Source: Candidatus Algichlamydia australiensis (GTDB lineage Bacteria > Chlamydiota > Chlamydiia > Chlamydiales > JAJFMI01). From it: a DNA stretch of 64,000 nucleotides. Both the position numbers and the translations under genes were made by a program. This document shows, piece after piece, positions 7,341 through 63,622 of the stretch. The notes beneath the pieces are model-generated. The model made no database searches, was not told the DNA's origin, and saw only the letters and a program-made list of their open reading frames with translations. How positions within the stretch are numbered: position 1 is the stretch's first letter; each line of letters begins with the position of its first letter. The stretch lies in contig JAXCHI010000004.1 in NCBI GenBank assembly GCA_033977065.1, positions 433,236 to 497,235 on the forward strand. Direction: 5' to 3'.

Positions 7341-7695
7341 ATACTGGGGCTACCACCTTATTTTAGATTGCAAAGCTTGTGATATTGAAGCGATCACAGA
7401 TCGTGAAACAATCACTTCTTTTGTAAAGACACTTGTCGAAGAGATTGATATGAAAGCGTATGGTGAGCCGCAACTAGAGCATTTTGCGACTCACGATCCT
7501 GACGCTGCTGGCTACTCTCTTGTCCAACTTATTGAAACAAGTGCCATTACCGGGCACTTTGTTGATAAAAACGGGGATGCGTATATTGATATTTTTTCTT
7601 GCAAGCCCTTTGATCAAGCCCATGCAAAAAAAATTGTGGAGCGATTCCTCACCCCACAAAATATCAAGTCGCAGTTTTTAAAACGTCAGGCCTAA
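7285..7695 (+). CDS. S-adenosylmethionine decarboxylase-family proenzyme with N-terminal signal-like peptide
   Basis: WGYHLILD, LIETS-ITGH cleavage region, YIDIFSCKPFD. Confidence 0.8.
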   Translation: MRKIILGTLLFWGTLQAGEYWGYHLILDCKACDIEAITDRETITSFVKTLVEEIDMKAYGEPQLEHFATHDPDAAGYSLVQLIETSAITGHFVDKNGDAYIDIFSCKPFDQAHAKKIVERFLTPQNIKSQFLKRQA

Positions 7696-9105
7696 CTCAT
7701 CTAGACGATCCAAAATTCCCGAATCTTTGGCGTATTGAACCATCTCTTCGCTAGCAATTCCTAGGTTCATCATGCGTACAGAAAAGAGCTCTTGCTCTAT
7801 AGCATTAGGATAGCGTTGAATTCCGCCTGTCTTCTCAATCGCTAAAGGAAGAGGGGATACAGAACACTCTGGGCGCGGATGTACAAAATAGACAATGGAG
7901 TAGCGGTCTTTATTTTCCCCTTTTTCAACAACGCGGTGCACAGCGCTTCTGTAATGACCATTGGTCAAATTTTGCAGCATGTCCCCACAATTTACAATAT
8001 AAGAGCCGCTTGGAACGATTACATCAATCCATTTACCGTTCTTCTCTTGAACTTGTAAACCCGCACCTTTTGAGCTGGGTAAAATCGTAAAAAGATCGAT
8101 ATCAGTGTGCTCTCCTGCCCAAATTCCTCCTTCGGGAGTCCCTTTTGGGTAGTAATTAAGCCTTAAGATTATATTCGCATCTTGAATTTTTTCTAGAAGG
8201 AGATCGGGAGAGATCTCCAAAGATTCAGAAATCATGGTTGTAATCAGTTTTGCCTGGTGACCTAAATTATCGTAGAGGGGATCAAAGCGCTCTTTGAATG
8301 AAGGGTCTAGAGGCCAAATGTTTTCGATTTCAAACTTATCTGGACCGATATGGTAAAACTCCTTAAAATCTTTCTCTTTACGTCTTCTAGTACTCTGTAA
8401 CAGAAAATTTTAGTATTATTTTTACGTCAAAGCCTTCGCATAAAAATGGATCCCAAACGTGAAAAGTAAAGCGATTGTATGTGATTGAAAAAGCTGTCTA
8501 GACCTTGCAAAGTTTTCTGCAAAACAAAAAAAACAGCCGCGCAAGCGACGTGAAAGGGGCCCCTCCCGAAACAAAGTGGAGGGTGGGGAATGAACGCGCG
8601 ATGCGCTCGATGGCTTCAGATTGGCTTTGAAAAATTGCGGTGCAGGAGGAAGAAGTAGTGCTTTGCACGGTTTTCCGACGAAACGCAATTTGGCATGCCA
8701 AGGTGAAGCTCAAAGGGCAGCGGGGATTTGCCCGACTGTCTCTATTGGCTGTTTTTTTAAATTAAACACTAAGATTTTCTGTTACAGAGTACTAGCTGTT
8801 TCACTTGGAACAAACCCTCGACGACCACTTAACTGGGGATCGTAAAGCGATAACTTTTCTGCCATGGGAAGAGAAAAAAGGTCAAAGCTTGCGCGATATC
8901 CTTTATCCAAAATTTCCTTTTCTATATCTGTGTTGATAAGAGCAAAAAAACCAATCTCATGAAAAGCTTCCGATAGCTGTTCTAAAAAGAGTTCGCGATT
9001 TTCATAGTAGTCGTTCATATCGAGCACAGGTATTGTGCTCTCAAATGCAAATATACTTGTTGCTAAACCAAATATTACCAATATTTTTCTCATTCTCTCC
9101 TCCAT
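7678..9105 (-). pseudogene. 2OG-Fe(II) oxygenase (IPNS-like) interrupted by an A-long element
   Basis: IPVLDM..GFF N-terminus, HTD, VHRV, RYS; removing 405 bp gives a continuous 340-aa frame (..SETA|RRRKEKDFKEFYHIG..). Confidence 0.9.
8387..8795 (+). mobile_element. Family A-long miniature inverted-repeat element (409 bp including both CTAG)
   Basis: Terminal IR CTAGTACTCTGTAACAGAAAAT; near-identical copies at 20256, 46550, 54551. Confidence 0.95.
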
Positions 9106-19928: not shown

Positions 19929-19973
19929 ATATTCTTGCTCTCTATGTATTTCTTACTAGAGAGGGGAGGGCTA

Positions 19974-20091
19974 AATAGCGTCGTCAAAAGCATACAACCA
20001 TCTTATTTTTCATGTTTGGGCTTCATTTGAGCACAAAAATAAGCTGCAAACATGAAAAATAATCTGATTATAGCCTTTTGACGACACTATC
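19974..20091 (+). mobile_element. Family-B hairpin element, internally rearranged and shortened
   Basis: ATAGCGTCGTCAAAAG...CTTTTGACGACACTATC, TA on both sides. Confidence 0.9.
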
Positions 20092-20259
20092 TAGTACTCT
20101 GTAACAGAAAATTTTAGCATTATTTTTACGTCAAAGCCTCGGGATTGAACTATCGAAAATCACCTCGTATTTGATTAATACTAGGTGACTTGCGATAGCC
20201 CAATCGCGAGAGCTTTCACGTTAAAAAGAATAGCAAAAATTTTTGTTACAGAGTACTAG
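20091..20259 (+). mobile_element. Family A-short hairpin element (169 bp including both CTAG)
   Basis: Same terminal IR as A-long; imperfect palindrome centred on GTATT-TGATT-AATAC. Confidence 0.95.
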
Positions 20260-20664
20260 TACTCTGTAACAGAAAATTTTAGCATTATTTTTACGTCAAA
20301 GCCTTCGCATAAAAATGGATCCCAAACGTAAAAACAGGGTGATCAAAAGGATTTAACGACACTGTTTAGAACATGCAAAGTTTTCTGCAAAACAAAAAAA
20401 ACAGCCGCGCAAGCGACGTGAAAGGGGCCCTACCCAAAACGAAGTGGAGGGTGGGGAATGAACGCGCGATGCGCTCGATGGCTTCAGATTGGCTTTGAAA
20501 AATTGCGGTGCAGGAGGAAGAAGTAGTGCTTTGCACGGTTTTCCGACGAAACGCAATTTGGCATGCCAAGATGAAGCTCAAAGGGCAGCGGGGATTTGCC
20601 CGACTGTCTCTATTGGCTGTTTTTTTTAAATTAAACACTAAGATTTTCTGTTACGAAGTACTAG
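20256..20664 (+). mobile_element. Family A-long element (variant)
   Basis: 409 bp; matches 8387-8795 except a divergent 45-nt window and a few substitutions. Confidence 0.95.
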
Positions 20665-20829
20665 TACTCTGTAACAGAAAATTTTGCTATTCTTTTTAAC
20701 GTGAAAGCTCTCGCGATTGGGCTATCGCAAGTCACCTAGTATTAATCAAATACGAGGTGATTTTCGATAGTTCAATCCCGAGGCTTTGACGTAAAAATAA
20801 TGCTAAAATTTTCTGTTACAGAGTACTAG
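20661..20829 (-). mobile_element. Family A-short element, inverted
   Basis: Near reverse complement of 20091-20259; terminal CTAG includes the kinase stop. Confidence 0.95.
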
Positions 20830-34861: not shown

Positions 34862-35202
34862 GATAGTGTCGTCAAAAGCTCTGTACTGGACAAAAATTTT
34901 GCCAAGAGGAGCAAAGCGAGCCAAAATCAAATCGAAGCAGCAGCGTTTCGAGCGACGAGTCCATAGCCCATAGTGCTATGGACGAGGAGGAGAATCGATT
35001 TGATAAAGGCGCAGCTCTCCCATTGGTGAAATTTTTGTCCAGTACAGAGCGTCAAAAGGCTATAATCAGATTATTTTTCATGTTTGCAGCTTATTTTTAT
35101 GCGGAAATTGAAGCTGAATTTGTAAATTCCGCTTCATTTGAGCACAAAAATGGAGCCCAAACATGAAAAATAAGATGGTTGTATGCTTTTGACGATGCTA
35201 TC
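34862..35202 (-). mobile_element. Family-B element (161 bp) carrying a nested family-C element
   Basis: TA flanks; 341 bp minus the 180-bp insertion equals 161 bp, the same as the other copies. Confidence 0.92.
34879..35049 (+). mobile_element. Family-C hairpin element (171 bp), IS4-like ends
   Basis: Terminal IR CTCTGTACTGGACAAAAATTT; perfect 9-bp direct repeat CGTCAAAAG at 34870-34878 and 35050-35058. Confidence 0.92.
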
Positions 35203-36088
35203 TAGGGATCGTTTTTTTTGTAATGATTGTGATGAGCCCCATAAGTATGAGCGCAAATCCGACGTAGGCGATTGGGCTAAGGATTTCGTTTAGAAAGATC
35301 ACACCGAGGTTAATGCTGATGATGGGGAAGATGAGAGTGCTGAGGGAGAGATAGGTAGCACCCGCTTTTTGCACGAGCTGGTAGTAAAAATAGAAAGCAG
35401 TAGCCGTTCCAATAACAGCGAGTCCAAGGACGCCGAAAATGCTGATGGCAGGAGGTGAGTGGGGCAAAGGAGCGAAAAGGAGCGCAAGTGGCAAGAGAGT
35501 AATTGAGGAGAAGAAGAGTTGCCAAGTAGGGGCCACAAGGCCAGGAACGCGCGTAAGGTGGCGGCGGCCATAGACCATTCCTATGGCGTAGCAGATGGCA
35601 GCGCCGATCATCAAGATGACTCCAAATGTAGAGCCGTATCTTGCTTGCAGGAGACTGGGCAACATGACCAAGACTAGACCGATAAAACCTAAAGAAATTC
35701 CTAAGGTTTTGACCCAGCTAATGCGCTCATCGTGAATGAAGAAGTGCGCAAAGATGGTAACAAAGATAGGAGCAGAGCCATTAATAATCGCAGCTAAGGA
35801 ACTGGAGATGTAAATTTCGGAATAGGCAATAAGAGAGAAGGGGATTGCATTTGCAAAGAGCCCCATAATAAAAAAATGTTTCCAGTAGCCGCGCCACTCC
35901 ATGAGGTTGCGTTTGCGAATCCAAACAATTGGCAGAAGGAAGAGGCAGCCAAGAGTCAGGCGGAGCCAGACAATCATAAAGGGATGAAATCCTTCCAGGG
36001 CAAATTTAATGAACATATAGGAGGGGCCCCAGCAAAAACTGAGCCCAAAAAGTAGGAGTAAATGTTGTACTTCGATGCGTCCTTTCAT
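35198..36088 (-). CDS. EamA/DMT transporter
   Basis: About 10 TM segments, WG...F, two EamA repeats; stop lies in the family-B end. Confidence 0.92.
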   Translation of the reverse strand: MKGRIEVQHLLLLFGLSFCWGPSYMFIKFALEGFHPFMIVWLRLTLGCLFLLPIVWIRKRNLMEWRGYWKHFFIMGLFANAIPFSLIAYSEIYISSSLAAIINGSAPIFVTIFAHFFIHDERISWVKTLGISLGFIGLVLVMLPSLLQARYGSTFGVILMIGAAICYAIGMVYGRRHLTRVPGLVAPTWQLFFSSITLLPLALLFAPLPHSPPAISIFGVLGLAVIGTATAFYFYYQLVQKAGATYLSLSTLIFPIISINLGVIFLNEILSPIAYVGFALILMGLITIITKKTIPR

Positions 36089-46384: not shown

Positions 46385-46553
46385 CTAGTACTCTGTAACA
46401 GAAATTTTTAGCATTATTTTTACGTCAAAGCCTCGGGATTGAACTATCGAAAATCACCTCGTATTTGATTAATACTAGGTGACTTGCGATAGCCCAATCG
46501 CGAGAGCTTTCACGTTAAAAAGAATAGCAAAAATTTTTGTTACAGAGTACTAG
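46385..46553 (+). mobile_element. Family A-short element
   Basis: 169 bp, CTAG-bounded. Confidence 0.95.
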
Positions 46554-46958
46554 TACTCAGTAACAGAAAATCTTAGTGTTTAATTTAAAAAAACAGCCAA
46601 TAGAGACAGTCGGGCAAATCCCCGCTGCCCTTTGAGCTTCACCTTGGCATGCCAAATTGCGTTTCGTCGGAAAACCGTGCAAAGCACTACTTCTTCCTCC
46701 TGCACCGCAATTTTTCAAAGCCAATCTGAAGCCATCGAGCGCATCGCGCGTTCATTCCCCACCCTCCACTTTGTTTCGGGAGGGGCCCCTTTCACGTCGC
46801 TTGCGCGGCTGTTTTTTTTGTTTTGCAGAAAACTTTGCAAGGTCTAGACAGCTTTTTCAATCACATACAATCGCTTTACTTTTCACGTTTGGGATCCATT
46901 TTTATGCGAAGGCTTTGACGTAAAAATAATGCTAAAAATTTCTGTTACAGAGTACTAG
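46550..46958 (-). mobile_element. Family A-long element, inverted
   Basis: 409 bp, CTAG-bounded. Confidence 0.95.
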
Positions 46959-52729: not shown

Positions 52730-53921
52730 GGCAATCGCACTTATTTTGAACGCACACACTCATCGTAGCGCAAAAAAGGCTTTTACAGAAGCGGATTTGT
52801 TGGAGTATCGGTTAGACGAGATAAGAAGACCTAATCTGCCCGAAACCAATGCGATTTTCACTCATCCCTCAAAAGAGGACTTAGCTCTATCTCCCGCCTT
52901 TGTAGATCTTGACTACCAATCTGAAAGCATTTCCTATCTCTCTCCCCATTCAAAACTAATTGCTTCCTACCACAATTACGAGAGCACGCCTGACTTAGAA
53001 AAGCTTTTTAACCAAATGCAGAAGGTACAGGCAGACTTTTATAAAATTGCAACTTTTGCCAACTCCTCTCTCGATGCGCTACGTATGATGCGTTTTCGGA
53101 GAAAACACCCCAATGTGATTGGTATTTGTATGGGAGAAAAAGGACTTGTTACTCGAGTGACAGCCCCAATTTGTGGGCAACATCACACTTATGCAAGCTT
53201 AGAAAAAAATGATTTGGGAATTCCGCTTTTAGAGGAGTTGTTAACCGTTTACAACTACCGCCATCTCAACCCTCAAACAAAAATTTTCGCCTTAATTGGA
53301 GATCCCGTATCGCTTAGTCCATCGCACATTACCCACAATCAAACATTTCTTTCTAGAGGACAAAATGCTCTCTACGTTAAAATCTCGCTAAAAAAAGAGG
53401 AGCTTTCAGAATTTTTCTCTTACAGCAACTTTTTCGACGGTCTTAGCGTCACACACCCTCTCAAAGAAGCGGTACTACCCTTTTTGCAAAAAATAGATCC
53501 TGAGGCGAAATCGATTGGGGCAGTCAACACAATATCCCAAGGGTGTGGCTACAACACTGATGGTAGAGGGGCATGGGATGCAATTGGAAATCCTCCGGGA
53601 AAGAGGGTGGCTATCTTAGGAGAGGGCGGAGCAGCGAGAGCTGCGGCTTTTGAAGCAAAAAAGCGCGGATTTTTGCCTACAATTTACTATCGTACACTTG
53701 ACCTTAAGCCCTACGATATTTTGATTAATGCTACGCCGCTTGGGATGAGGGGGGAGCTAGCACTTCCTAAAGACAAAATTCTTGAAAGAACAACTCTCTT
53801 AGATATGGTGATGGCAGACACACCTCTGATCAAAATTGCAAAAGAAAAAAAATGTCGCGTGATTACGGGCAAAGAGATGTTCCACGCACAAGCAAAACAT
53901 CAATTGAAATTTTTTAAATGA
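52728..53921 (+). CDS. aroDE: Bifunctional 3-dehydroquinate dehydratase / shikimate dehydrogenase
   Basis: EYRLD, SYHNY..TP, MGEKG...R; GDPV..SPS, VT.P.K, GAVNT, NTDG, INATP. Confidence 0.92.
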   Translation: MAIALILNAHTHRSAKKAFTEADLLEYRLDEIRRPNLPETNAIFTHPSKEDLALSPAFVDLDYQSESISYLSPHSKLIASYHNYESTPDLEKLFNQMQKVQADFYKIATFANSSLDALRMMRFRRKHPNVIGICMGEKGLVTRVTAPICGQHHTYASLEKNDLGIPLLEELLTVYNYRHLNPQTKIFALIGDPVSLSPSHITHNQTFLSRGQNALYVKISLKKEELSEFFSYSNFFDGLSVTHPLKEAVLPFLQKIDPEAKSIGAVNTISQGCGYNTDGRGAWDAIGNPPGKRVAILGEGGAARAAAFEAKKRGFLPTIYYRTLDLKPYDILINATPLGMRGELALPKDKILERTTLLDMVMADTPLIKIAKEKKCRVITGKEMFHAQAKHQLKFFK

Positions 53922-54103
53922 CTGTATACATAGCGAACGGGGAGCATCGTCCCGTAGAAATTCAAGAAGAGAGAGTAATTGCTGTAGATGGAGGGTTACA
54001 GTTCTGTTATAGGCTGGGGATTGAGCCAATCGCAGTTGTTGGGGACTTTGACTCTTTAGATAAAGAGTTATTAGAGCAGTATCCGGACGTAGAAAAGGTT
54101 AAG

Positions 54104-54272
54104 CTAGTACTCTGTAACAGAAATTTTTAGCATTATTTTTACGTCAAAGCCTCGGGATTGAACTATCGAAAATCACCTCGTATTTGATTAATACTAGGTG
54201 ACTTGCGATAGCCCAATCGCGAGAGCTTTCACGTTAAAAAGAATAGCAAAATTTTCTGTTACAGAGTACTAG
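54104..54272 (+). mobile_element. Family A-short element inside thiN
   Basis: 169 bp, CTAG-bounded. Confidence 0.95.
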
Positions 54273-54550
54273 ATCGCGCTAAAGATGAGACTGGCCTGGA
54301 AGTTGCAATAAAAAAATATGGTGAAAAAGGAGTTGTTTACGGAGGTCTGGGAGATCGCTTGGATCACACGATCTACAACCTCTTCTTAGCACTTCGTTAT
54401 CCAGGAATACTCCTTTTTGATTTTCATGGCGAGACGATATTTGTAGTAGAGGATAGAGAAGCTTTAGAGTTTTATAACGGATATAAAATTGTCATCGAAA
54501 ACAGCCAAGAAAAATTTCAAAAAATTGTAGATCAGATAGCTAAAACGCCT

Positions 54551-54959
54551 CTAGTACTTCGTAACAGAAAATTTTAGCATTATTTTTACGTCAAAGCCTT
54601 CGCATAAAAATGGATCCCAAACGTGAAAAGTAAAGCGATTGTATGTGATTGAAAAAGCTGTCTAGACCTTGCAAAGTTTTCTGCAAAACAAAAAAAACAG
54701 CCGCGCAAGCGACGTGAAAGGGGCCCCTCCCGAAACAAAGTGGAGGGTGGGGAATGAACGCGCGATGCGCTCGATGGCTTCAGATTGGCTTTGAAAAATT
54801 GCGGTGCAGGAGGAAGAAGTAGTGCTTTGCACGGTTTTCCGACGAAACGCAATTTGGCATGCCAAGGTGAAGCTCAAAGGGCAGCGGGGATTTGCCCGAC
54901 TGTCTCTATTGGCTGTTTTTTTAAATTAAACACTAAGATTTTCTGTTACGAAGTACTAG
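54551..54959 (+). mobile_element. Family A-long element inside thiN
   Basis: 409 bp; both ends carry the TTC variant (CTAGTACTTCGTAAC). Confidence 0.95.
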
Positions 54960-55271
54960 TTACGCCCGAAAATCCGATGATTATTGCTACTAAACGAGGT
55001 CAAACTATCTCTCTATTTCCCATTGGAGGAAAAGCGACTGGTGTGAATACAAAAGGCTTAAAGTGGGAGTTTGGTGAAGAGTATAATGAGATGGATAAAG
55101 ACTTTGTCAGCTTATCAAATATAGCTATTGGAAATCGGGTAGAAATTTCAGTAGAAGCAGGAAAAGTGGCGGTTTTTATTAGCGAGTTAATTGATAAGGA
55201 GATGTTGGCTTTATAAGGAGGGGCGGAGCTGTTCCAACCCTCCCAAAATTCTCCGTTTACAGAGTGCTATT

Positions 55272-55886
55272 CTACTGCTCTACAAAAGGAGCTGTAGCTG
55301 CTTTTACAATGTCGGGATCGACATTGGCAAAGATTGCTTCGATTTTGACCTGAAGAACTTTTTGCGCGCTATGCTTTTGTAGGGCTGGAAGCGCTTCTTT
55401 AGAATGAATAAAGAGGCGACTATTGATTTCTGCAAGAGCTGCTTGCGGATCTTCAAGTTTCTCTTCTACATCGCCCGCTTTGATTTGAACAAGGCGTTCA
55501 AACTCGTTGATTTGTGCAATTTGAGCCGCTTCTAACTGTTTTGAGAAAATTTCCTTCGCTTTTTCAGGGCTGACATTGTGCTTTTTTGCCTGGATGACAA
55601 TGTTTTGCAAGAGCTGCTGCTCGTTATCAATTTCAAGGATAGGCTTACCGCGATTCCACTTGTAAGCAGAGACGTGCTCCATAATATCAATTCTCTCTTT
55701 GATCGTGCCAAGGAGATTTTCGATTGATTGGATGTCTTGGTCAGTAAGAAGGTCTTGGTAGGCAAGCTCTTGTTTAGGAGCCGGCTCTGTAACATTTTGA
55801 TTTGCACTCATTTGTGGGTGGAATGCAAATGGGAGACCGAAGAGCATAATACTAAGTAGGGTACGTTTAAATCCTTTAAATTCCAT
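55272..55886 (-). CDS. Secreted chorismate mutase-like protein (AroQ-gamma)
   Basis: Signal peptide; ER...M..V..YKW....PI......EQ; F..Q.EAA...Q. Confidence 0.75.
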   Translation of the reverse strand: MEFKGFKRTLLSIMLFGLPFAFHPQMSANQNVTEPAPKQELAYQDLLTDQDIQSIENLLGTIKERIDIMEHVSAYKWNRGKPILEIDNEQQLLQNIVIQAKKHNVSPEKAKEIFSKQLEAAQIAQINEFERLVQIKAGDVEEKLEDPQAALAEINSRLFIHSKEALPALQKHSAQKVLQVKIEAIFANVDPDIVKAATAPFVEQ

Positions 55887-55924
55887 TGTTCACCTCGTAA
55901 TTTCGGCTCTATTATAGCAGTTTT

Positions 55925-56362
55925 TTAATTAATTGTGAATGTAAAATTATTTTTTGATTTTAAAGAATTTGCAACTATACAGCTTTTTTGTGCATCTGTG
56001 AGCAGCGCGTGCGCTTTTTCTTCGTCCGTTACACCTGTCAAAGAGAAGTGCAGGTGCACCTCAGTTACAGAGACAACCTTTTCTTCGTTGCGATCAAGAA
56101 AGATTTCTACATTTCCTGAAAGATCAGAAAATGAGAGACCACTCTTCTCTGCAAAAACCTTAAATGTCCCCATAAAACAGGTCATAACGGAGAGTCCGAT
56201 TAAATCTTCCGGGGAATATCCTGCACCTGCACCTCCAAAAGCTTCTGGAACATCACAGGTAAGAGAGGGCTGTCCATGTGCTGTTGCGGTCCAACCACCA
56301 TTCAATTTTGCTTCTGCTTTAAATTTCATCGGATATTCGATCATTGTAAACTCCTTTTCCAC
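55925..56362 (-). CDS. OsmC family protein
   Basis: P..FGG.G...SPEDL, two conserved Cys (TCF, SCIVANS). Confidence 0.88.
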   Translation of the reverse strand: MEKEFTMIEYPMKFKAEAKLNGGWTATAHGQPSLTCDVPEAFGGAGAGYSPEDLIGLSVMTCFMGTFKVFAEKSGLSFSDLSGNVEIFLDRNEEKVVSVTEVHLHFSLTGVTDEEKAHALLTDAQKSCIVANSLKSKNNFTFTIN

Positions 56363-60428: not shown

Positions 60429-60778
60429 TTCTACTACTTGTCCGCCTTATCATCACAACAGTTGTCGTTGTTTTAGTTGCGCACATCATCCCCGGTCTAG
60501 AAGTAAAAAACCTTACCGACACCATATTTTTTGGTTTGATTTTAGGACTTTTAAATGCTGTAGTACGCCCCATACTTACCTTTCTAACCTTGCCGATTAC
60601 GATTATTACCTTGGGACTTTTCACACTGGTAATCAACGCATTCACATTTTGGCTGGCGAGCGAGATTGCTTACGGTGTACACATCTATACCGTCTGGGGT
60701 GCTGTCATTGGAGGAGGAATTATTTGGCTTACCGGTCTTGTGACGAATCGTTTGATTTGGAAGGTGGACCTTTATTAG
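60425..60778 (+). CDS. YvlD / phage-holin-4-2 family membrane protein
   Basis: LLNAVVRPIL..LTLPI...TLGLF..VINA. Confidence 0.88.
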   Translation: MILLLVRLIITTVVVVLVAHIIPGLEVKNLTDTIFFGLILGLLNAVVRPILTFLTLPITIITLGLFTLVINAFTFWLASEIAYGVHIYTVWGAVIGGGIIWLTGLVTNRLIWKVDLY

Positions 60779-60938
60779 ATAGCGTCGTCAAAAGCATACA
60801 ACCATCTTATTTTTCATGTTTGGGCTCCATTTTTGTGCTCAAATGAAGCGGAATTTACAAATTCAGCTTCAATTTCCGCACAAAAATAAGCTGCAAACAT
60901 GAAAAATAATCTGATTATAGCCTTTTGACGACACTATC
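60778..60938 (+). mobile_element. Family-B hairpin element (161 bp)
   Basis: GATAGCGTCGTCAAAAG...CTTTTGACGACACTATC with TA flanks; overlaps the stops of both convergent genes. Confidence 0.93.
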
Positions 60939-62211
60939 TAGTTTCTTTCAATTCTTCATTCTTTTTGATAGCAGTAAAGTAAGCCAGTGCGATTGACGCA
61001 ATAATTCCATTGATAGAGAGTGCAAGCAAAAAGAGCGCGTTTCGCCTCTTCTGGGCATAGTGCGTATAATTCAAGTAGAGTAGGCAAGTAGAGAGGTTCA
61101 CAGAGAAGACTGCTTTGGATATTGCAATTCTCTCCCAGTTCTTAGCGTTTAGAGAGTAGTAGCTCCCAAAAAAAGAATGTATAACTTCCGAGCCGAGCTT
61201 CCCTCTTGTAAGAGTTTTTTGTGAGAAGACAAACCAAGAGGGGACACCACCTCCGTACTTATTTCCAATCAATAAGATTGCGAAAGTAGTTTTTGAAAAC
61301 GAAAGAATATTTTTTACGGTTTCAATAAAGCTCAATCTAACAAAGGTTGCCTCACAAACTTTTTTACCTTCAGCATAAATTTTTTGCATTTTTGATAGTG
61401 AATTCAAGTCTTTTGTTGCCGCTGCAAGACCATCTCGTCCATCACCTTCAATGAGATCAAGTGCGCTTAATGAGCCTGTAACAGATGCAGTTGAGTACTT
61501 AACAAAAGAGGTGTTGGTAGTCCAAAGATTCTTTGTGGATTTTGCAAAAATCTTTAGTTTGGATTCACAGTAAACTTCCTTCTTCTCTTCTTTATTCTCT
61601 TTCTTGTTCCAAGCATCAATACCATCAAAAAAGAGAATGGCAAGCTTGCAAACATAAAGGAAGTTTCTGGACTTTTCAAATTTAAACACAAACGCAGTAA
61701 CACGGTAGCTTTGGGAGATAAAACGAGTGGCTTGCCCACACATTTTCACGGTCTCATTTTTTTCAAAGCTTTTCCACGCTTTTAAAGCGGCTTTAGTTCC
61801 GCTAAATACGCATTTGGTATTTGAGATGATTTTAAAACCGTAAGAGTCAAGGCTTAAAACATTGATCCCATACATCTCAAATACAGCAATTAGTTTACAT
61901 ACTTTTGCTGCAACTTCTGAGAAGTGGATAGAGATCGTTCTAAATGAGCGGTTAGAATTTCCAAGCTCCACAAAAAGTGCTGTCAACGTTTCAGGTGTTG
62001 TTTGGATAGCGGAGATGTTCTTTAAATCATAAGTGGCACGAACCCAGCCTCCTGAACTTTTGCGGTCTACTAAACTGCTTGCATGCAGGGCATCAGCTCC
62101 AACATCCGCAACCTTTGCAAAAAAAGAGGGGGAGGTGCGCATTTTTTCTTCGAGATTACCTAAGCCTGAAAAAATACTATCTTTGAGTGAAACTTTAGAT
62201 CCATTTGCCAT
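60934..62211 (-). CDS. Hypothetical protein with apparent internal duplication
   Basis: 425-aa ORF; two similar roughly 200-aa halves. Confidence 0.65.
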   Translation of the reverse strand: MANGSKVSLKDSIFSGLGNLEEKMRTSPSFFAKVADVGADALHASSLVDRKSSGGWVRATYDLKNISAIQTTPETLTALFVELGNSNRSFRTISIHFSEVAAKVCKLIAVFEMYGINVLSLDSYGFKIISNTKCVFSGTKAALKAWKSFEKNETVKMCGQATRFISQSYRVTAFVFKFEKSRNFLYVCKLAILFFDGIDAWNKKENKEEKKEVYCESKLKIFAKSTKNLWTTNTSFVKYSTASVTGSLSALDLIEGDGRDGLAAATKDLNSLSKMQKIYAEGKKVCEATFVRLSFIETVKNILSFSKTTFAILLIGNKYGGGVPSWFVFSQKTLTRGKLGSEVIHSFFGSYYSLNAKNWERIAISKAVFSVNLSTCLLYLNYTHYAQKRRNALFLLALSINGIIASIALAYFTAIKKNEELKETR

Positions 62212-63446: not shown

Positions 63447-63452
63447 CTATTA

Positions 63453-63613
63453 GATAGTGTCGTCAAAAGCATACAACCATCTTATTTTTCATGTTTGGGC
63501 TCCATTTTTGTGCTCAAATGAAGCGGAATTTACAAATTCAGCTTCAATTTCCGCACAAAAATAAGCTGCAAACATGAAAAATAATCTGATTATAGCCTTT
63601 TGACGACACTATC
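63453..63613 (+). mobile_element. Family-B hairpin element (161 bp)
   Basis: Perfect terminal IR GATAGTGTCGTCAAAAG with TA flanks. Confidence 0.93.
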
Positions 63614-63622
63614 TAGTATTCC

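Follow-up and report, generated by a model that had tools for sequence, protein, structure and literature searches.

Does a gene that is cut into three pieces by two hairpin-ended inserts, and that is rebuilt when both inserts are exactly removed, represent a freshly dead gene or one whose inserts are taken out again? This question is raised by thiN, the thiamine pyrophosphokinase (TPK) gene of Candidatus Algichlamydia australiensis, which lies in the 64,000-nucleotide stretch of DNA analyzed here (the window, to which coordinates refer unless another contig is named). The gene is split by inserts of 165 bp (54108-54272) and 405 bp (54555-54959). The first-pass annotation had considered very recent pseudogenisation the simplest reading, with an intron-like, bypassed or switch-like element as the alternative.

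In-silico deletion of both intervals yields 729 nucleotides, comprising 242 codons and the terminal stop without any other stop, just as had been claimed. All pieces indeed share one genomic frame, with ORF starts at 53918, 54359 and 54785 that are congruent modulo 3. The ATG of fragment 1 (53918-54107, plus strand) shares nucleotides with the stop codon of aroD-aroE, the fusion gene upstream (ATGA). The fragment runs up to the CTAG that insert 1 targeted and matches Pfam TPK_catalytic over 53918-54106 (E 2.6e-9; profile positions 8-48). Fragment 2 (54273-54554, plus strand), which likewise runs up to the CTAG targeted by insert 2, continues the same profile over 54275-54553 (E 1.6e-5; positions 60-103). 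Fragment 3 (54960-55216, plus strand) encodes the thiamine-binding domain, recognized as TPK_B1_binding over 54962-55213 (E 3.5e-13), and closes with a TAA stop at 55214-55216.

Both TPK domains are therefore recognizable, but the chain that would normally hold them uninterrupted is cut twice, and a conserved Asp has become Gly. The reported change of KDETD to KDETG is real: the Gly codon in fragment 2 is GGC (54293-54295), and Asp occupies this position in four of five distant homologues (L002, L003, L005 and L006), the fifth (L004) being divergent there. Because the first in-frame stop is codon 9 of each insert, the native start yields only a 70-residue stub. A second TPK locus was looked for in the genome, and none was found. 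Might the three pieces be made separately and then assemble into a working enzyme? A TTG-started ORF (54785-55216) does run from inside insert 2 into the thiamine-binding domain, and another (54359-54577) covers part of fragment 2. However, it is the catalytic domain that the cuts disrupt (Pfam profile positions 48 and 60), no start codon lies close to where the middle piece begins, and the conserved Asp is lost. We know of no precedent, and we give this arrangement almost no credence.

The inserts resemble each other at their ends. CTAG bounds insert 1 at 54104-54107 and 54269-54272, and insert 2 at 54551-54554 and 54956-54959. The description of both as hairpin-ended is confirmed by their 38-nucleotide terminal arms, whose complementarity is 87% in insert 1 and 84% in insert 2. 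Between the two inserts, the left ends share 94% identity over 49 nucleotides and the right ends 77% over 39 nucleotides. Insert 1 (unstranded) is the short form of a MITE family that we call family A. It is a near-perfect palindrome over its full length, is predicted to fold as a single RNA hairpin of -75 kcal/mol, and can be read either as a 163-bp element with a TA duplication or as 161 bp with a CTAG duplication. Insert 2 (likewise unstranded) is the long form, with termini as in the short form; in this copy, both termini show the variant TTCG. Internally it is a mosaic, whose parts include a family B-like piece and a 232-nucleotide cargo module. Neither insert has coding capacity, as each of the six frames contains two to eight stops, the first within 13 codons.

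The membership of both inserts in a multi-copy family, whose short and long forms have a common terminal inverted repeat, is evident from the rest of the genome. The short form is present in 14 full-length copies (95.9-100% identity), and the long form in at least 10 full-length copies among the matches listed (93-100% identity); copies of family A and its cargo are dispersed across four contigs. The element ends read GTACTCTGTAACAG. The 22-nucleotide terminal repeat has 82 matches in the genome, with flanks of the form cTA...TAg in nearly all, and CTAG stands at both ends in all 14 clean family A loci tested. Within the window, a 32-nucleotide end pattern occurs eight times, versus 0.00 expected from shuffles. 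These elements thus combine the properties that define MITEs: a size below approximately 600 bp with terminal inverted repeats, a target-site duplication, many dispersed near-identical copies, and no capacity to encode protein.

Other copies in the window show how these elements accumulate. A short-long-short chain (20091-20829, unstranded) is joined through common CTAGs and abuts a partial family B copy (19971-20090), and a short-long chain occupies 46385-46958 (unstranded). Another long copy (8387-8795, unstranded) splits a minus-strand 2OG-Fe(II) oxygenase gene (7678-9105) into halves recognized by Pfam as DIOX_N (8797-9105) and 2OG-FeII_Oxy (7678-8388), and a CHMI isomerase gene on contig C7 is also split by these elements. 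In both genes the Pfam halves flank the element, and its exact removal restores the frame. In this genome, three or more MITE families have been active recently, and gene calls are affected through split CDSs and false start codons. The term 'MITE' occurs 0 times in the species paper (PMC11317633). A three-piece NTT pseudogene, reported in the accessible part of that paper (PMC11317633), was considered as a further MITE case and rejected: it is interrupted by point stops, and no MITE maps to its interval (contig C2, 62034-63490).

MITE insertions in genes are selected against. Only eight of 45 loci lie in open frames, compared with about 62% of random sites. Three of 31 family B loci lie in a frame that stays open for 50 codons or more in both directions, versus 62.8% of 3000 random TA sites (P 1e-9). 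Among family A loci, five of 14 do so, versus 61.9% of 2000 random CTAG sites (P 0.04).

Taken together, thiN is very probably a recent pseudogene broken by two family A MITEs. MITE membership, the stops, the depletion from coding sequence and the Asp-to-Gly change all support what the first-pass annotation had put forward as the simplest reading. By this account, thiN would originally have been a normal single-copy TPK gene, the last one of the aroD-aroE operon, into which two non-autonomous cut-and-paste MITEs of one family would have landed, namely the 163-bp hairpin form and a 403-bp form with folded cargo. Each insertion would have duplicated its target, either TA within CTAG or the whole CTAG. 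Such a target-site duplication accounts for the rebuilding of the frame when one repeat and the element are deleted, and the nature of the inserts as MITEs accounts for the hairpin ends, the CTAG pairs and the frame restoration together. A frame restored by exact removal is thus a signature of target-site duplication and not of an intron. Because the 729-nucleotide frame is intact apart from the inserts and the Asp-to-Gly change, the inactivation would be recent. An element sits in each of the only two CTAG sites of the restored gene, which fits a second insertion into an already neutral gene; we infer the order of events in thiN decay.

Why, then, do the borders look as though they were built for removal? 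At both junctions, in-frame CTA codons are matched and the added lengths (165 and 405 nucleotides) are multiples of three, formally like the take-off and landing codons of translational bypass. We read this codon match as a by-product of CTAG duplication. One could propose that the hairpin joins the two CTAGs so that the insert is spliced out of the RNA, or that the ribosome jumps over the insert, leaving the CUA that precedes it and landing on its terminal CUA. The matched codons, the lengths divisible by three and the very stable hairpins would all suit such a scheme, yet these features follow automatically from CTAG duplication by a palindromic MITE. Moreover, an Rfam scan of 53000-56000 with E values up to 1 recovered no ribozyme core of a group I or group II intron and no other family, the sole match being a miRNA-like one that, at 25.5 bits, falls far below the gathering score of 100 and is attributable to chance. 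The gaps of 165 and 405 nucleotides compare poorly with the roughly 50 nucleotides of known bypass gaps; other copies add 406, 481, 570 and 737 nucleotides, lengths that are not all divisible by three; and the scarcity of MITEs in coding DNA argues that such inserts are not harmless to genes. We know of no bacterial mechanism that cuts and religates at such hairpins. Removal at the level of RNA or translation is thus extremely improbable.

Loss from DNA is a separate matter, on which sequencing runs bear directly. Contigs of two DNA runs, X1 and X2, contain occupied junctions only. Those of X1 that pass from unique gene sequence into an element cover 53600-54133, 54243-54590 and 54931-55500, each with 0 other letters, and X2 contributes 53962-54133. 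One contig of 348 nucleotides begins in insert 1, spans fragment 2 and reaches into insert 2. As the elements are high-copy repeats within which short-read contigs break, repeat copies could in principle have been misplaced inside an intact thiN during assembly. However, separate X1 contigs cross the junctions between unique gene and element without a discrepancy, and X2 has the same junction at 53962-54133. Both runs possibly derive from the source sample, such that they are not independent and confirm the reads rather than a second strain. We regard an assembly artefact as highly improbable.

The suggestion that empty-site alleles be sought in DNA reads has so far gone against the alternative, as the Logan contigs of X1 and X2 contain no empty-site junction at either insert despite a word depth in the thousands for X2; this counts only weakly, since such contigs drop rare variants. 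A reversible DNA switch would require that the palindromic inserts be precisely lost, through hairpin-aided slippage between CTAGs or the action of a seamless transposase, so that a subpopulation regains thiN. Exact direct repeats do flank a near-perfect 163-nucleotide palindrome, an arrangement that favours RecA-independent precise excision, and the frame is otherwise intact. Nevertheless, restoring thiN would take two independent excisions and leave the Asp-to-Gly change in place, and the depletion of MITEs from genes is what is expected if insertions are costly rather than harmlessly reversible. Y1/HUH transposases are the type known for seamless excision, and none was found in the genome. 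Such a switch is therefore very unlikely. The same holds for an exact loss of the hairpin MITEs in general, be it from the transcript or, in a minor fraction of the cells, from DNA. If they were lost in this way, thiN and the other split genes would be reversibly silenced, forming a bacterial counterpart of transposon-derived eliminated sequences. With no intron family detected by Rfam in 53000-56000, all frames stopped, coding sequence avoided and empty-site contigs absent from X1 and X2, the proposal of an intron-like, bypassed or switch-like element finds no backing, and removal of the inserts from DNA or RNA has no support.

If thiN is a recent pseudogene, is its loss surprising? A search with fragment 2 detected TPK in only five of 30 relatives, by distant matches of 35-44% identity. 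In a genome of the same family (G002), aroB, aroD-aroE and a chorismate-mutase gene are adjacent with no thiN between them, and G001, a 76%-complete genome of the same genus, gave no match to either thiN or aroD-aroE. No closer, uninterrupted orthologue emerged from a word-indexed protein search, a metagenome scan produced 204 pattern matches of which 0 were confirmed, and a search of solved structures with fragment 2 alone returned TPK entries only at E 0.4-1.6, too weak to be of use. Judged from gene content, thiN is dispensable in this group. Where it is described in the accessible part of the species paper, thiamine biosynthesis is incomplete (PMC11317633). The locus appears to capture gene decay in progress, in which an intracellular symbiont of a coral-associated alga has had its last thiamine-activation step knocked out by mobile elements, and we infer that the symbiont now depends on thiamine pyrophosphate from its host.

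The cargo module of the long MITE merits separate mention. This GC-rich segment of 232 nucleotides (54691-54922, plus strand) is bracketed by AAAAAAACAGCC and GGCTGTTTTTTT (12-nucleotide inverted repeat I6). It is present in 17 full copies in the genome (96.6-100% identity), with relatives in other genera at 73-78% identity, and its predicted fold shows compensatory change in 20 of 46 pairs. By these comparisons, the module is a conserved element with a predicted fold. Sequencing runs X3 and X4 contain approximately 200-240 nucleotides of the cargo module only, without information on thiN.

What enzyme mobilized the family? No cognate transposase was found in the assembly (93% complete), despite copies that are 96-100% identical. 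None of 12 solitary ends adjoins a transposase-like ORF of at least 110 amino acids, and searches of this assembly with the DDE_3, HTH_Tnp_IS630, DDE_Tnp_1_2 and Y1_Tnp profiles gave no match. The Transposase_1 profile likewise gave no match, an uninformative result because its control gave none either. Two candidate parents were rejected: a 1110-bp DDE_Tnp_1 insertion sequence (two copies; the only one of its type with defined ends), whose inverted repeats are unrelated, and an rve match that is a fragment with a stop. The 20-nucleotide element end is absent from public genome and metagenome collections except for three chance matches (L027, L028 and L029). These extend over only 20-23 nucleotides, and the one in L029 is a palindrome in the spacer between unrelated genes. 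A TA duplication and a 4-bp CTAG duplication fit the data equally and are indistinguishable here; the transposase would be either a TA-duplicating enzyme of the IS630/Tc1-mariner type or an IS5-like one acting on CTAG.

Both possibilities have precedents. TA-duplicating bacterial MITEs, such as the Correia elements of Neisseria, derive from IS630/Tc1-mariner-type elements. Family A resembles these in its size (160-400 bp), terminal inverted repeats, lack of coding sequence, near-identical copies, insertion at TA (here always within CTAG), and location in or next to genes. It differs in that its short form is palindromic over the full length, its long form carries a conserved, putatively folded cargo, and this genome, 93% complete, gave no match to DDE_3 or HTH_Tnp_IS630. 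Elements of the IS5 group duplicate CTAG, and CTAG indeed stands on both sides of every intact family A copy. However, the one DDE_Tnp_1 element with defined ends has unrelated inverted repeats, and the genome contains no DDE_Tnp_1_2 match.

Rickettsia palindromic elements are likewise palindromic repeats inside genes of obligate intracellular bacteria, where they lie in frame within protein-coding genes and are translated with the host protein. In contrast, the thiN inserts are closed in the host-gene frame at codon 9 and in every frame within 13 codons, and therefore truncate the gene. Programmed bypass in phage T4 gene 60 and the mobile byp inserts of Magnusiomyces mitochondria, with gaps of approximately 27-55 nucleotides, shares with thiN the matched codons around a non-coding insert and a hairpin in the gap. 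The thiN gaps are far longer, no stop directly follows the take-off codon, and the codon match is explained by target duplication.

A biological parallel is the Cardinium endosymbiont of Oedothorax gibbosus, for which the accessible part of the report describes a burst of an IS982-derived MITE that contributes to pseudogenisation (PMC9769881). Both cases involve a lineage-specific burst in a host-restricted intracellular bacterium that adds to pseudogenisation, whereas the parental insertion sequence described there is intact and none was found here, and the host phylum and element sequence differ (PMC9769881). On the best reading, the inserts in thiN are MITEs, and thiN itself is an ordinary, freshly dead gene.

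The thiamine pyrophosphokinase gene thiN (53918-55216) is one gene in three pieces, which lie in a single genomic frame and are split by inserts of 165 bp (54108-54272) and 405 bp (54555-54959). Pfam recognizes two thiamine pyrophosphokinase (TPK) domains across these pieces, with TPK_catalytic matching 53918-54106 (E 2.6e-9) and 54275-54553 (E 1.6e-5), and TPK_B1_binding matching 54962-55213 (E 3.5e-13). Scripted deletion of both inserts leaves 729 nt, or 242 codons and a stop, with no further stop. The interruption reported in the first-pass annotation is thus borne out in every detail by sequence and Pfam, as is the claim that deletion rebuilds a frame of 242 amino acids. Also present is the KDETG sequence in which a conserved residue was said to be altered. 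Four of five distant homologues (L002, L003, L005 and L006) carry Asp at the Gly position, the fifth (L004) being divergent, and the Asp-to-Gly change falls within the KDxxD motif. No close thiN orthologue turned up in 30 relatives, a protein search or a metagenome scan.

Each insert is bordered on both sides by CTAG and carries terminal arms of 38 nt that are 87% (insert 1) and 84% (insert 2) complementary. A left end of 49 nt (94% identity) and a right end of 39 nt are common to the two inserts, and a 32-nt end pattern occurs eight times in the window versus 0.00 expected. In the source genome, to which all whole-genome counts refer (1.80 Mb, 7 contigs, 93% complete), the short insert is present in 14 full-length copies (95.9-100% identity) and the long insert in at least 10 among the matches listed (93-100% identity), while 82 sites match the 22-nt terminal repeat GTACTCTGTAACAGAAAATTTT with no more than four mismatches, nearly all of them flanked as cTA...TAg. 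The thiN inserts are MITEs, as defined by their small size, lack of coding capacity, inverted ends, duplicated target and numerous near-identical copies. We call this group family A and chose 14 of its loci from 90 merged repeat intervals, taking complete elements with both ends and leaving out truncated or decayed copies; CTAG is present at both ends in all 14. The target duplication can be read either as TA within CTAG or as the whole CTAG, since the data fit both alike.

A second palindromic family (B), 163 bp long, unrelated to family A and ending in TA-GATAGYGTCG, has 31 complete copies in the same genome at approximately 95-100% identity; in the window, the family is represented at 60776-60941, 63451-63616 and 35050-35205. 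Because its flanks vary beyond TA, family B clearly duplicates TA.

Why, then, does exact removal restore an open thiN frame? Where an insertion has duplicated its target, deleting the element together with one repeat recovers the sequence that preceded it, and so the rebuilt TPK frame is the outcome of target duplication and the same applies to any such element. Similarly, a long MITE at 8387-8795 interrupts a minus-strand 2OG-Fe(II) oxygenase gene (7678-9105; DIOX_N at 8797-9105 and 2OG-FeII_Oxy at 7678-8388 by Pfam), where exact removal leaves about 340 codons open. A short MITE (contig C7, 2072-2240) splits a CHMI-family isomerase gene (L013; 1835-2365), and two more long open frames, without Pfam matches, are cut by family A on contigs C2 (at 110118) and C3 (at 601939).

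These considerations bear on the alternative that the paired ends unite the two CTAGs and that the inserts are removed from DNA or RNA, or bypassed, as intron-like or switch-like elements. The matched in-frame CTA codons and the hairpin that joins the CTAGs would be in keeping with this proposal, and both follow from the duplication and the palindrome. Likewise, the lengths of 165 and 405 nt are multiples of three, which is no family rule because other family A copies and chains add 406, 481, 570, 735 and 737 nt. An Rfam search of 53000-56000 with E values up to 1 returns only a miRNA-like match, at 25.5 bits versus a gathering score of 100, and no intron. Neither insert is open in any of the six frames, a stop being reached within 13 codons in every case; read in the frame of thiN, each insert has its stop at codon 9, with VLCNRNF and VLRNRKF as the resulting tails.

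Inserts that did no harm to genes should be as frequent in coding DNA as random sites are, and the observed occupancy is lower. Specifically, an open frame surrounds 3 of 31 family B loci, compared with 62.8% for 3000 random TA sites (binomial P 1e-9), and 5 of 14 family A loci, two of them in thiN, compared with 61.9% for 2000 random CTAG sites (P 0.04). The families together give 8 of 45 loci by a crude rule that demands at least 50 open codons on each side after exact in silico removal. This rule misses the CHMI gene (86 and 42 codons) as well as a gene with a BPL_N domain that is interrupted close to its end (300 and 46 codons), and it counts a family B locus (contig C3, 568866) at which the ORF downstream starts independently, with a signal-like N-terminus, such that the insertion probably lies upstream of that gene rather than within it. 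No core housekeeping gene is found among the nameable genes hit by MITEs.

Contigs assembled from DNA sequencing runs X1 and X2 carry the occupied state, which in X1 extends over 53600-54133, 54243-54590 (from insert 1 through the middle fragment into insert 2) and 54931-55500. The empty-site alleles that the alternative would predict do not appear, in that no contig from either run has a joint skipping either insert, where contigs lose rare variants and both runs may be source data of the window assembly. The occupied junctions rule out an artefact, though not rare excision. Overall, the intron-like, switch-like or bypassed readings find no support, and we consider all their forms together very improbable.

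Family A elements often lie head to tail with a common CTAG. The same short-long-short chain of about 740 bp occurs at three places (contig C4, 389697-390437 and 453326-454064; contig C2, 110118-110858), one of which is window 20091-20829, indicating either that element ends are a preferred target or that the chain moves as a unit. Both terminal repeats of the long thiN insert (54555-54568 and 54946-54959) carry a two-base variant, TTCG in place of TCTG, as do copies at C3 641496, C4 390272 and C4 453875. This paired change suggests that the ends were copied from each other through hairpin-templated repair or conversion, or that a variant lineage spread after the paired change. At C4 23979-24014, two family A terminal repeats face each other and overlap, leaving no interior, and adjoin a family B copy; this may be a minimal remnant or a product of excision or deletion.

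The long MITE also carries a GC-rich cargo unit of 232 nt (54691-54922), bracketed by AAAAAAACAGCC and GGCTGTTTTTTT, with 17 full copies in the genome (96.6-100% identity), including one at 8527-8758. Related units with 73-78% identity form inverted pairs between convergent genes in a genome of the same genus (G001); relatives in other genera of the order, at the same identities, are often inverted pairs between genes, and two genomes from outside the family (G173 and G234) contain the core at 74-76% identity. The relatives listed are L016 (1505-1994), L022, L023 (1104-1616), L018 and L024. The module has no Rfam match. An RNAalifold structure from an eight-sequence alignment has 46 pairs, of which 20 show compensatory changes affecting both partners; pairing holds in 91.7% of cells versus 33-47% with partners slid, and none of 500 shuffles reaches its covariation score. 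These comparisons are biased toward the structure, which was derived from the same small sample, with several sequences being copies from one genome. The module is a conserved folded element picked up by the long MITE, and it may act as a terminator-like element or small RNA.

Although MITE copies share 96-100% identity, neither the 93%-complete assembly nor public collections yielded a transposase whose ends match theirs. DDE_3, HTH_Tnp_IS630, DDE_Tnp_1_2 and Y1_Tnp have no match in this genome; a Transposase_1 search also gave none, but it is uninformative given that its control was silent in every genome. A DDE_Tnp_1 insertion sequence (1110 bp, two copies) was rejected as parent on its different inverted repeats, and an rve match is a broken fragment. 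Around two further DDE_Tnp_1 loci, 3.2-3.4 kb of sequence contain no matching end, and 12 solitary family A ends adjoin no transposase-like ORF. Among species-representative genomes and JGI metagenomes, the 20-nt end is absent except for three chance matches of 20-23 nt. Because the copies are so similar, the mobilizing enzyme either resides in the unassembled 7%, was recently lost, or belongs to an element with unrelated ends.

Several signs point to thiN having been expendable already, one of them the Asp-to-Gly change in the KDxxD motif. The distribution of TPK in the order is patchy, a search with fragment 2 having recovered it from 5 of 30 relatives, and in a genome of the same family (G002) aroB, aroD-aroE (44% identity) and a secreted chorismate-mutase-like gene (E 4e-18) are adjacent with no thiN between them. 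No second TPK locus was found in the source genome. The thiN start codon overlaps the aroD-aroE stop, and insertions would carry no polar cost because thiN closes its transcription unit and is followed by a convergent gene. Restored thiN has exactly two CTAG sites, both occupied, in a genome with 3192 such sites versus a few dozen insertions. A double insertion is expected once the first has removed selection, and local hopping could add to its chance.

The recent pseudogenization proposed in the first-pass annotation therefore agrees with the two MITE insertions and the signs of expendability, and we are highly confident that thiN is a fresh pseudogene made by these insertions. The text of the species paper on Candidatus Algichlamydia australiensis describes an incomplete pathway of thiamine biosynthesis and a further pseudogene, NTT1, and the term MITE occurs nowhere in it (PMC11317633). 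A MITE origin is ruled out for the NTT pseudogene (contig C2, 62034-63490), which has point stops and no MITEs. A pseudogene made by MITEs, such as thiN, is an ordinary event for a host-restricted bacterium.
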